From NCBI RefSeq assembly GCF_045037415.1, contig NZ_CP173438.1: a DNA stretch of 64,000 bases. One strand, 5' to 3'. The position numbers are program-made. Positions within the stretch are counted from its first letter, which is position 1. Every line of letters starts with the position of its first letter. Source of the DNA: Escherichia coli (GTDB taxonomy: Bacteria > Pseudomonadota > Gammaproteobacteria > Enterobacterales > Enterobacteriaceae). Below, in pieces: positions 27,001 to 36,000 of this stretch.

Positions 27001-30000
27001 GCTGATGGCGCTCCTGGTAGGAATGGCGCTGGGTTTGGCCGGGGCAGAGATGCAAACTATTCTGAATAACTCCCTCGCCAGCCCGTTTACGCTTGGCGTT
27101 TCGTCGGCGGCGGCCTTTGGCGCAGCGCTGGCGATTGTTCTGGGCATCGGTATTCCCGGCGTTCCCGAAAGCGGGTTTATACCGGCAAACGCTTTTCTTT
27201 TTGCGCTCCTGTCCGCCCTGCTGCTCGATAGTCTGACCCGCTGGACGCGCGTGCCGACGTCGGGCGTTGTGCTGTTTGGGATTGCGCTGGTGTTTACCTT
27301 CAATGCGCTGGTGTCCATTATGCAGTTTGTCGCCGATGAAGATACTTTGCAGGGCCTGGTGTTCTGGACGATGGGCAGCCTGGCTCGCGCATCATGGGAG
27401 AAACTGGCGGTGCTGGCGGCGGCGATGGCGATTGTTTTACCCTGGTCGCTGCGTCGTGCCTGGCAGCTTACCGCGCTACGCCTCGGCGAAGAGCGGGCGA
27501 TGAGTTTTGGCATTGATGTTCGCCGTTTGCGCCTGGGTTCCCTGCTGCGCATCAGCCTGCTGGCGGCCCTTTCGGTTGCGTTTGTGGGGCCAATTGGCTT
27601 TATTGGCCTGGTTGCACCGCATATTTCCCGCCTGTTGCTGGGAGAAGATCATCGCTTTTATTTGCCCGGAAGCATCCTTATCGGTGGGCTGGTGCTATCG
27701 CTGGCCTCGGTAGCGTCGAAGAACATCATTCCCGGTGTCATTTTACCGGTAGGAATTGTTACCTCGCTGGTAGGCGTTCCGTTCTTTCTGAGCATTGTAA
27801 TGCGTCATCGAGGGAGTATGTCATGAGCGGGCTTACGATTAATGCGCTGTGCGCCGGTTACGGCAAACGGCGGATTATTGAGCATCTGTCGATTTCTACG
27901 CTGCCGCGCGGCGAAGTCACTGTACTGCTGGGGCCTAATGGCTGCGGTAAATCAACGCTACTGCGCGCCCTGGCCGGGCTAAATCGCGCCAGTGGCGAAG
28001 CCTGGCTGAATGAAGAGAATCTCTTATCGCTGCCGTTTGCTCGTCGGGCTGAAAAAGTTGTGTTCCTGCCGCAGTCCCTGCCGCAGGGCGTGCATTTACA
28101 GGTGCTGGAGTCGGTGGTTGTCGCCCAGCGCGCCTCCGGCGCCGGGCAAAATCAGGCGCAGGCTATAGCGCTGCTCGAAGAGCTAGGCATCGCACATCTG
28201 GCAATGAACTACCTCGATAGCCTGTCCGGCGGTCAGAAGCAGCTGGTGGGGCTTGCACAGTCGCTTATTCGCCGCCCCGAATTATTATTGCTGGATGAAC
28301 CACTGAGCGCGCTGGATCTCAATTATCAGTTCCATGTGATGGATGTTGTATCGCGCGAAACGCGAAGACGCAATATGGTTACGCTGGTCGTCTTACACGA
28401 TATCAATATCGCACTGCGGCATGCCGCCCAGGTCATCATGCTGAAAGAGGGGAAACTTATCGACAGCGGCGACCCGCAAACGGTGATCCATGCAGAGAGC
28501 CTTGCGCAGGTATACGGCGTACGCGGGAGAGTTGAACGTTGTGCTCAGGGAAGATCGATGGTGATAGTGGATGGTGCAATCGAAAAATAGTCGGATTAAC
28601 GTGGTTGCTTCAGCCTCAGGTAAAGATCAATAGGAAGTCTGTAATGCAACATATAGACCGCCTTAATGTCATTAAAGCACTTGTGCTTCTAGAAGATGAG
28701 CAGATTGTTCGTTTTAACATCGCTGCGAACGATAACGCCTCGCAGATCCACATGCTCGTTGACGGTCTGGGCGTCGGGCTGACACATGAGCCTGTCGCTG
28801 CCGGAATGATTTCGCACCGGACAGCTTGTCACCGTTCTAGGCAACATGACAGACCTGCGCATTCCTATTTCTATTATCTATCCGCCTACCAAGTTGCTTA
28901 ATGTCAGGCTAAGGCCCTTTAATGACTGGATTTCAGACCGATTTTCTGGACAGCCGAGCGGGTAAATCGCAGTACACTGACAGCTAGACAATAAAGCTCC
29001 GGTTCATGTTTGAACCATGTGTAGTGAATGTCCGCTGTTCGCTCACAACGGACCTTCAGTTCAGCCGCTCCGGCCGCTTCATGCCATGAATGTACGCAGC
29101 CAGTCAGAATATTAAGGTGCGGATTTCAGTTCACTTGTCAGCGCCAGTGACACAAGACAGTAATGACCAACAATTTGGTATTGACACAACAAGTTGCGGC
29201 CCCGGTTCGTGGAGGAGATTAAACGACTGTAGCCGGGGCCACTGAGTAAGCGTCAACGGAGCACCGTATTGACGCTTATTTATTGGTGAGTACTACGTTC
29301 CATGGCAGGAGTTCGTCAACTCGGTTGGAAGGCCATTCCGGCAGTACGCTCAGGATATGGCGCAGATACGCTTCCGGATCGATACCGTTCAGACGGCAGG
29401 TGCCGATCAGCCCGTACAACAGTGCTCCACGCTCGCCGCCGTGATCGCTGCCAAAGAACATAAAGTTTTTCTTTCCGAGACAGACTGCACGAAGCGCTCT
29501 TTCCGCAGCATTATTATCCGCCTCCGCCAGACCGTCATCACTGTAATAACAGAGGGCATCCCACTGATTCAGTACATAGCTGAACGCTTCGCCCAGTCTG
29601 GATTTTTTCGACAGCGTACCATTCTTCTCCACCATCCATTCATGCAGCGACGTCAGTAACACTTTGCTTCGCTGCTGCCTGACGGCAAGACGCTCTGACT
29701 CCGGTAATCCCCGTATTTCATCCTCGATGGCGTACAGTTCACTGATTCGCTTCAGGGCTTCTTCTGCCGTCGCACTTTTGCTGCTGATGTATACATCGTG
29801 GATTTTTCGCCGGGCATGGGCCCAGCACGCAACTTCTGTCAGTGCACCACCTTCACGTTCTGCACTGAACAACCTGTCGTAACCTGTGAACGCATCCGCC
29901 TGCAGGATACCCCGGAAGGGGCGGAGGTGTTGCTCCGGGTGTTTCCCCTGCCGGTTCGGCGAGTACGCGAACCAGACCGCTGGAGGAGATGACGAACCCA

Positions 30001-33000: not shown

Positions 33001-36000
33001 CATACGTTGCAGTTTCGCAACCAGCGCCTTCAGCCGGTTGATTTCGGAAGCATAAGCCGCCACCCGCTGTGAGAGCAGGCGGTTGTATTCAGCCATCTGG
33101 CGGATGGTGTCCTGTTGCGTCTGCAACAGTGCCCGCAGGCGGGCGTTCTCATGAGCAAGTGAGGTGTCCATATCCTCACTTTACAACGGGTTATATGCGG
33201 ATTCCAGCGCGTTCCGTTCGTTTCGGGTGCTTCCAGTTGATACCTTCAAGAAGCATGGATAACTGAGCCGGAGTAAGGTGCACCTTGCCGTCACGGGTGA
33301 CTGGCCAGACGAAGCGGCCCCGCTCCAGGCGTTTGGTGAAGAGGCACAGTCCGTCACTGTCAGCCCACAACACTTTTATCTGGTCACCCCGGCGTCCGCG
33401 GAAGATGAACAGGTGTCCGGAGAACGGGTCATCCTTCAGGACGTTCTGAACTTTTGATGCCAGGCCGTTAAAGCCATTTCGCATATCGGTGATACCTGCA
33501 ACCAGCCAGATACGCGAACCTGCAGGGAGAGATATCATCAGTGGCTGCTCCCTTTTATTTCGCGGATAAGTGTCTGTAATAACGCCGGCGTCAGTTTACC
33601 TTTAAGCCTGAGAGTTCCGGCCGGCAGAACCAGCTCACAACACAGACTGTCGGACGGTGTATTTATCTGCTCTGGTTCCTGTGCGGGGGCCGGGATTTTA
33701 TTATCCGGCTCCGGCGTTAACGTCACGGGAAGCAGTGCCGGCATATTTTTTCCGGAAGGCAGCAGGCCACCTTTCCGGTATTGATGGCGCCAGTTGAAGA
33801 GCAGGTTATCGTTGATTCCGTTTTCCCGGGCGATCTGCGCCACACAGGCTCCGGGCTGCAGTGACTGCTCCACTAAGGCGATTTTAAACTCATAAGGGAA
33901 GTTGGGCCGCCGGGGACGTTTTTTTACCACGGGGGCTTCGGATATAACGGTGCTTTCAGGACGTACGACTGGTACCGTGGAAAATTGTCCGTAAAGGCAG
34001 GCATCAAGTTCCTGCTCCGACATGCCTGCGGGCAAAGGCCACGAAAGGCCAGCTCTCCGAAAGCGCACGAACATACTACAAACTGTTGATTTTGGTACAC
34101 CCAGGCGACGCCCGGCCACAACCCGGGGTAAATGTTCTTCAAAGTGAAGACGTAAAGCTTCAGTGATCCAGGTCCGGTGTTTCATACGATAGTGTCCATT
34201 AAAAATGATGGACATTATTTTTGTAGAGCCGGAGGAAACAGACCAGACGGTTTAAATGAGCCGGTTACTCATTGACGCCATTTTCACGTGCAATCTGTGC
34301 AACACAAGCTCCAGGTTGTGATGCCAGTTCCACCATACGAAGTTTGAATTCATTCGAATAGTTTTTACGAGGTTCTTTTCGCCAGTCCTGTAATTCCATA
34401 CTTAGATGTCCGTCTATATCAGATGGGCGTCTAAGTTACCAATTCTCGTCTGATGGCTACATACGGCGGTCAGTTTACGCTTACGCCACTGAAATGAAGA
34501 ATTCAGAGAGACTGAATGATATGTCGCACCTTCAGTGAATAGTGTAAAAACTGGGATATTCTCATCCGGGATTACCCACTCATACTCAATGCGTAACTTT
34601 AGTGCGGCCCCCACAGGTAAGAGCCGGACACATTCGTTGTGTATGCTGCAGAATCGGTAACCGGAGGCCCTGCGGTCCTTAACTCAGTGTCTTGTGTTGC
34701 TCATTTGCCACAAAGTCCTGGTACGCCTGCTCAATCATTTCATTCAGCAGTTTTTTTGGGAGGACACCACGACTTCGGGCAATACTTTCAAGCTGTTTGT
34801 GGATTTTTCCGGACAGTTTCAGCGGGACGGAACCATCAGCACGTTCATCACGCCTTTTTTGTTGCTCCCGGGCACTTTTCAGCTCATCAAGAAGAATCGC
34901 TTTATGCTGAATCCTGGGGGCCTGGAAGGAGGCCTGCGTAAACTTCGCTCTGTTCCGTCTGGGATTACTTTCCAGTAAAAACTGTACCTGTTGCTCATTC
35001 CAGCCTTCCCAGTTATCAAACGTGGCGCAGGCGAACCAGTATTTCTGCTCCGGGGTAAGGGGATTCAGCGGGGTTCCCACACACCGGACCTGCATGGCGT
35101 TCCATAACCAGTCACACTGTTCACTGTCCCTGCTGTCCACCCACGAAAAGGGGGAGGGGTAATCATTGTTTATGCTGGCCCATTCAGAGAATACTGAGTT
35201 GATAATCGTCCTCGTAGCCTCTGGTCCGGATTTCAGCAGGTAACTGGAGCAGAACCATATAATTTCACGGTAGATATTATCCGGATGCACGGTGCGCATC
35301 GGCTTTTCTCTGGGACCGGCAATCTTCGGTTGCGATGGAAAACCCATGGCAAACCGCAGATGTTCCGGGGGCATTCCTGAACGTTTTTCAGGAATGGGTG
35401 TGAGTCCTGCGTTTCTGGTCTTTTCCGCTTGTCCGGTATTGCCTCCGGCCGGAGTGTTGTCGGGAGTATCTTCCGGAGGCGAGGTGTTTTCATTAGTGGG
35501 GGGAACAACAATAGAACTGTCCATCTCCGGAATGGGGTGAGGGGCATAATCACTGTGGTAGCCCGGGGAAAGCGTTAAGTCCCGAAGGGTGACATCAGGT
35601 TCCGGGCAGTGAGTGCCACCGGGAGTGAACGGGAGTTGTTGCTTTTGGGGGAAAAATGTATTGTGAATGCGGGTATACAGCCGGAACAGAAAAAAATAAG
35701 ATGCCCGTGGTTCTTTTTTTAACCACTTTGTATATTCCTCTATGGCACCGAGCTGTTGTTTGTGCCGTTTTACAGCATCGATATACGGACAGCTGGTGCA
35801 GATATCATCCAGTTCCTTTCCCACAATACACCTCACCTGCTCTTCCCACATTTGCAGATTTTAAGAAAGCAAACAAAAACCTCCGTACATGATGTACAGA
35901 ATGTACAGAACAATCTATCAGGTACTGGCGTCAGAAGAGCTCCGGGCCGCCTGCATTTTCCGGAATGCGCCGGTTATGAAAAACCGGAAATTCAGTCTCT

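Follow-up and report, generated by a model that had tools for sequence, protein, structure and literature searches.

The window analysed here is a stretch of 64,000 nucleotides from Escherichia coli (NCBI RefSeq assembly GCF_045037415.1, contig NZ_CP173438.1), and positions 29246-34484 of it carry two insertion sequence (IS) elements of the IS66 family, ISEc23 and ISCro1. All the genes concerned lie on the minus strand, and the two elements have the same orientation. The names were first obtained with a megablast comparison of the region with E. coli genomes, which assigned the element with a TnpC of 537 amino acids (aa) to ISEc23 and the element with a TnpC of 523 aa to ISCro1. The identities were judged against copies annotated as these elements, in place of the ISfinder reference sequences; a protein identical to the ISEc23 TnpC carries the label “ISEc23 family transposase” from the Prokaryotic Genome Annotation Pipeline (PGAP). 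An earlier reading made from the sequence alone (hereafter the sequence-only reading) had recognised two diverged IS66-family elements with TnpC proteins of these lengths, and this was borne out: the TnpC proteins share 51% identity, and the similarity between the DNA sequences is confined to short patches of 64-76% identity. The ends of each element were set by comparison with independent copies at other sites (comparison loci L001-L009). The features are listed below, with IRL and IRR denoting the left and right inverted repeats.

29238-29245, no strand: ISEc23 target duplication, right copy, GCCACTGA, read from the sequence; a single copy is present at each of the empty sites (L006 and L007), and the octamer flanks ISEc23 in L008
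29246-31569, minus strand: 3′ (right) part of ISEc23, 2,324 bp, 100% identical to ISEc23 of L004 and L008; it includes the IRR, GTAAGCGTCAACGG...
29276-30889, minus strand: ISEc23 tnpC, 537 aa
30920-31270, minus strand: ISEc23 tnpB, 116 aa
31267-31569, minus strand: ISEc23 tnpA, codons 42-141 (headless frame)
31562-31569, no strand: ISCro1 target duplication, right copy, TCATTGAC, in codons 42-44 of ISEc23 tnpA; single copy in uninterrupted ISEc23
31570-34268, minus strand: complete ISCro1, 2,699 bp, 99.9% identical from end to end to the independent copies of L001-L005 (proteins classified with Pfam and NCBIfam); it includes the IRR, GTAAGCGACTCG..., and the IRL, ...GAGCCGGTTAC
31600-33171, minus strand: ISCro1 tnpC, 523 aa
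33191-33538, minus strand: ISCro1 tnpB, 115 aa
33538-34215, minus strand: ISCro1 tnpA, 225 aa
34269-34276, no strand: ISCro1 target duplication, left copy, TCATTGAC, read from the sequence
34277-34484, minus strand: 5′ (left) part of ISEc23, 208 bp, with the IRL (GTAAGCGTAAACTGACC..., minus-strand reading), an 85-nt leader and tnpA codons 1-41; 100% identical to ISEc23 positions 2325-2532
34485-34492, no strand: ISEc23 target duplication, left copy, GCCACTGA, read from the sequence and from the comparison loci

We conclude that a complete ISCro1 is nested in the tnpA gene of a resident ISEc23 as a result of two successive ordinary transpositions, and we put the probability of this at about 96%. 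Neither element is truncated or atypical: ISEc23 is split, and ISCro1 has no extra 5′ sequence. The nest is 5,239 bp long (~5.24 kb) and shows two levels of perfect 8-bp target duplications. The ISEc23 tnpA frame is interrupted at 31569/31570, and the terminal repeat of ISCro1 (GTAAGCG...) begins at 31570, exactly at this break, as the sequence-only reading had noted. In a piecewise comparison with strain 2013C-3277 (L002), which carries both elements intact and side by side, ISCro1 corresponded to window positions 31570-34268 and ISEc23 to 29246-31570 running straight into 34265-34484. The left end of ISCro1 is therefore at 34268, and the 216 bp of 34269-34484 belong to ISEc23. The sequence-only reading had placed the left end of ISCro1 at 34485, so that it took in the 5′ part of ISEc23 with its left inverted repeat; the start of its overall span, 29246-34485, was exact, and the end needs to be corrected to 34484.

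The two parts of ISEc23 fit together without a remainder. In L002, L004 and L008, the left 208 bp directly adjoin the remainder of ISEc23, and once ISCro1 and one TCATTGAC are taken out of 29246-34484, the reconstructed element of 2,532 bp shows 100% identity to those of L004 and L008. The reading frame at 34265-34399, with its start codon at 34399, reads MELQ...ENGVNE before a stop codon (full translation MELQDWRKEPRKNYSNEFKLRMVELASQPGACVAQIARENGVNE); it consists of residues 1-43 of the ISEc23 TnpA, and the stop codon lies within the left repeat of ISCro1. The remainder of TnpA resumes in frame at V42, from 31569 downwards, and the joined parts give a TnpA of 141 aa, as long as the product of the tnpA genes (426 nt) annotated for L004 and L008. 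The break is at codon 44, within the HTH_Tnp_1 domain (residues 11-62, Pfam). The sequence-only reading had correctly seen both this OrfA-like fragment and the 225-aa TnpA at 33538-34215; its assignment of the fragment to ISCro1, as an extra piece before the left inverted repeat, did not hold, and the piece comprises codons 1-43 of ISEc23 tnpA together with the left inverted repeat of ISEc23.

The same termini were found in independent copies. Six further copies of ISEc23 had exactly these ends, five at other sites (L001, L003, L004, L005 and L009) and the sixth, in L008, at the site of the window, as did five copies of ISCro1, all at other sites (L001-L005). Among these 11 further copies, each of the 10 at other sites had its own, different perfect 8-bp duplication. 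The octamers are as follows.

L001: ISEc23, TAACGTCA; ISCro1, AAAAATAT
L002: ISCro1, AAATCATT
L003: ISEc23, CCAGGCCG; ISCro1, TACTGAGT
L004: ISEc23, CAAAAACT; ISCro1, ACAAAAAC
L005: ISEc23, GATACTAA; ISCro1, GTTCAAAC
L008: ISEc23, GCCACTGA (the window's site); ISCro1 absent
L009: ISEc23, AGTGAATA; ISCro1 absent

The history of the site was examined by in-silico excision. When 31570-34268 and one TCATTGAC were removed from positions 27000-37000, the resulting sequence matched the chromosome of Ecol_AZ146 (L008) over 7,294 bp without a single mismatch or gap; this chromosome carries an intact ISEc23 at the exact site of the window, with the same GCCACTGA duplication, and the ISEc23-only allele is common to about 60 genomes. 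When the whole nest and one GCCACTGA were removed, 753 bp were 100% identical to the IS-free site of strains Esc23 and 4/1-1 (L006 and L007). Because the excisions match at the level of ISCro1 and at the level of the whole nest, three evolutionary states are documented: an unoccupied site, a site with ISEc23 only, and a site where ISEc23 carries ISCro1. In the scheme that we propose, ISEc23 (2,532 bp) would have inserted between genes of a chromosomal island of E. coli and duplicated GCCACTGA, a state now fixed in dozens of sequenced strains, and in the lineage of the window, ISCro1 (2,699 bp) would then have entered codon 44 of ISEc23 tnpA in the same orientation and duplicated TCATTGAC. The data show that ISCro1 transposed into a resident ISEc23 and that the insertion bears the 8-bp staggered-cut signature of the IS66 type.

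When 141-bp probes over both ISCro1/ISEc23 junctions were searched in 5,426 complete E. coli genomes, every match fell into two non-contiguous pieces, and a 3-kb probe over both junctions gave no single-piece match in 72,556 plasmids (PLSDB). Because the exact nest was found in 0/5,426 complete E. coli genomes and 0/72,556 plasmids, it is a strain-level event.

The same region could also be described as an ISEc23 truncated on its 5′ side, through a deletion or a fusion, that now abuts a 2.9-kb ISCro1 variant, one whose left inverted repeat is at 34485 and which has an additional OrfA fragment. The sequence-only reading leaned this way when it described elements abutting head-to-tail with one of them truncated, and it named insertion of one element into the other as an alternative, which is the correct one of the two. 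Such a model draws on the IS66-type terminus (…CGCTTAC) at 34484 and on the break of the tnpA frame at 31569/31570. However, five independent ISCro1 copies stop at the equivalent of 34268, each with matching 8-bp duplications; positions 34269-34484 match the ISEc23 left end at 100% identity; TCATTGAC stands on both sides of 31570-34268; and excision yields a known allele without mismatches. The locus is a clean nest with two perfect sets of duplications, from which the intact Ecol_AZ146 allele is restored at 100% identity. A truncated ISEc23 beside an aberrant ISCro1 is ruled out by the excision match, the ends of the independent copies and the identity of the ISEc23 left end, so that we give it practically no weight. 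An assembly artefact, in which repeat-rich IS sequence was misjoined, has in its favour that IS elements are often mis-assembled (PMC6778807) and that the exact junctions were absent from the complete E. coli genomes searched. However, a chimera would not set a full-length element precisely between copies of an octamer that is single in the uninterrupted host element, and two elements that share just 64-76% identity in short patches offer little basis for collapse; we regard an artefact as extremely improbable.

Homologous recombination between IS copies, or a rearranged form of the reciprocal nest seen in L001 and L003, would replace direct transposition as the origin of the structure. This draws on the observation that other strains combine both elements in other ways near related sequence, including the reciprocal nest of L001 at ~300 bp from the homologous flank. 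However, recombination would leave non-matching octamers (PMC6778807), and the duplications in the window match perfectly at both levels, as direct transposition predicts and recombination between IS copies does not. Moreover, the L001 flank is just 86-95% identical to the window, whereas that of L008 is 100% identical, and in L001 and L003 the insertions hit other sites (ISCro1 tnpA and tnpB, respectively). We consider an origin by recombination very unlikely, if slightly less so than the other two explanations.

Nothing in the sequence itself speaks against the nested insertion, and the following points weigh against parts of the account. The order of events was deduced from the comparative states. 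Because its ends are intact and its three open reading frames (ORFs) are full-length, we infer that the window ISCro1 is active, and as neither the 5,426 complete E. coli genomes nor the PLSDB plasmids contain the junctions, its insertion is probably recent. The window ISEc23 has kept its two ends and the genes tnpB and tnpC; the break in its TnpA falls within HTH_Tnp_1, and with TnpA lost the element is probably non-autonomous. The basis for the latter view is that Han et al. reportedly found in 2001 that tnpA is required for the transposition of IS679. Lastly, the ISCro1 of the ST131 (sequence type 131) strain EC958 is 2,824 bp long (PMC8764528), 125 bp over the 2,699 bp obtained here, a length that was set by the duplications at six independent insertions.

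We also confirmed that both elements belong to the IS66 family. Both TnpC proteins have the LZ_Tnp_IS66, zf-IS66, DDE_Tnp_IS66 and IS66_C domains (Pfam). DDE_Tnp_IS66 was matched with E = 4.5e-103 and 9e-98 in the two proteins, and the NCBIfam model transpos_IS66 scored 477 and 452 bits against a cut-off of 180. TnpB_IS66 was found in the two TnpB proteins with E = 4.7e-40 and 1.1e-36 (Pfam). The gene order is tnpA-tnpB-tnpC, with overlapping tnpA stop and tnpB start codons, which is the IS66 layout. Both elements have 8-bp target duplications and imperfect inverted repeats of the GTAA... type, which in the alignments are GTAAGCGTCAACGGAGCACCGTAT and GTAAGCGTAAACTGACCGCCGTAT for ISEc23 and GTAAGCGACTCGTCAGAACCGT and GTAACCGGCTCATTTAAACCGT for ISCro1. 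A generic repeat search of 28800-34900 missed the terminal repeats of both elements, which are too imperfect for it. An 8-bp duplication and the tnpABC layout are reported features of IS66 elements (PMC6778807).

The sequence-only reading had also regarded the 5′ region of ISCro1 as atypical and outside the standard IS66 layout. The 225-aa TnpA matched the curated NCBIfam model NF038385 (IS66_access_TnpA) with 295.8 bits (cut-off 150), residues 13-206 covering profile positions 1-189 of 190, and the same 678-nt tnpA is also annotated in the independent ISCro1 copies of L002, L003 and L004. This TnpA is the native, normal protein of ISCro1. In the ISEc23 TnpA, only the C-terminal part of NF038385 was matched, and the protein fits the short model NF047595. 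The long (NF038385) and the short (NF047595) TnpA are thus two recognised IS66 sub-architectures. The suggestion of an “IstA-like” helix-turn-helix (HTH) N-terminus lacked statistical support: residues 1-106 of the ISCro1 TnpA had no significant similarity to the IstA of the window's IS100 (BLASTP, E = 1.4), and in a permissive Pfam search of the N-terminus, the best match was HTH_23 with E = 0.081, under the gathering score. An extra HTH in this N-terminus is plausible.

ISCro1 was first named in Citrobacter rodentium and is widespread in E. coli, including ST131. It is the most expanded IS in C. rodentium, with 24 copies (PMC3072379), and in E. coli ST131, it has been found upstream of the afa operon (PMC8764528). 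The window copy shares its ORFs of 225, 115 and 523 aa, its ends and its 8-bp duplication with copies that PGAP annotates as “ISCro1 family”. It is 99.93-99.96% identical to those of L002 and L004 over 2,699/2,699 bp, and it differs from copies at many other sites by 1-2 single-nucleotide polymorphisms and by its new insertion site in ISEc23 tnpA. The window ISEc23 shares the ORFs of 141, 116 and 537 aa and the 8-bp duplication with known ISEc23 and differs by the interruption of tnpA at codon 44. We therefore regard the locus as a routine nested insertion, with both elements and the mechanism already known.

The two elements also occur together elsewhere. In L001 and L003, the nest is reciprocal, with ISEc23 within ISCro1 tnpA (L001) or tnpB (L003), whereas the window has the opposite direction. 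In L004, L005 and L002, ISCro1 and ISEc23 lie side by side, 9, 43 and 56 bp apart, respectively. The same relative orientation across the loci partly reflects a search bias, as only same-strand pieces were joined. In L001 (positions 6001-11239, NZ_OZ547064.1), a complete ISEc23 lies in ISCro1 tnpA with the duplication TAACGTCA, and this ISCro1 is inserted ~300 bp from sequence homologous to the window flanks (86-95% identity). In L004 (positions 3003-8242, NZ_CP107128.1), 9 bp separate the two elements, which share one orientation, and the octamers ACAAAAAC and CAAAAACT are shifted by one base; either the second element landed at most 1 bp from the end of the first, or both struck one A-rich hot spot. 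In L009 (positions 7120-9651, NZ_OZ040465.1), there is an independent ISEc23 in the same orientation, with the duplication AGTGAATA at the window equivalent of about 34534-34541, 49 bp from the ISEc23 site of the window and in the same intergenic region. In further genomes, the spacing from flank to IS is about 50 and 93 bp greater than in the window. L009 and the genomes with shifted spacing suggest a local insertion hot spot; the loci compared had been picked out with the two-element sequence as the query. Within about 300 bp of this one intergenic region, there are at least three independent insertions (window/L008, L009 and L001).

The insertion spot in the window is intergenic, between a TonB-receptor/ABC (ATP-binding cassette) iron-uptake operon and a hypothetical gene, in a background that is presumably an ST131-type island. 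Just past the left end of ISEc23, a 390-aa ORF lies at 34679-35851 on the minus strand (PGAP: a hypothetical protein of 381 aa, WP_001296206.1), and the ISEc23 insertion is about 190 bp past its 3′ end. Two IS66 remnants were also found. One, at 9454-9612 (159 bp), runs in the opposite orientation and has 96.9% identity with the tnpC-proximal (IRR) end of ISEc23; the other, at 51963-52389 (about 430 bp), has 83% identity with that end. Both are incomplete. At 37349-38371, within a patch at 36900-38400, there is an IS100-type (IS21 family) istA of 340 aa. Because an IS100-type istA is flanked by short IS21-family pseudogene fragments in homologous loci, this patch is a further case of nested or rearranged IS sequence within the island.

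Indirect signs that ISCro1 can move are its intact ends and three full-length ORFs in the window, its perfect duplications, and the near-identity of its many copies at different sites. The window contains no other intact ISEc23, only the two remnants; to transpose, ISEc23 would probably need TnpA in trans from another copy, and ISCro1 would then travel with it in a 5.24-kb unit. It is a tentative and, in our view, rather unlikely proposal that IS66-family elements may favour insertion in or beside other IS66-family elements or at shared hot spots, and that the window nest could still mobilise as such a unit via the ISEc23 ends. Mildly suggestive of such a preference, in loci chosen by the two-element query, are the nests in both directions, the close spacing in L004 and the insertions clustered in this 300-bp intergenic region.

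The correct annotation of the region is one interrupted ISEc23 and one intact ISCro1, not a truncated element beside an aberrant 2.9-kb variant. Beyond annotation, the significance is small, as one IS inside another is an everyday finding on plasmids and islands of E. coli. As a marker specific to the strain, the nest could be of use in lineage typing, and it probably points to recent ISCro1 activity in the lineage of the window.

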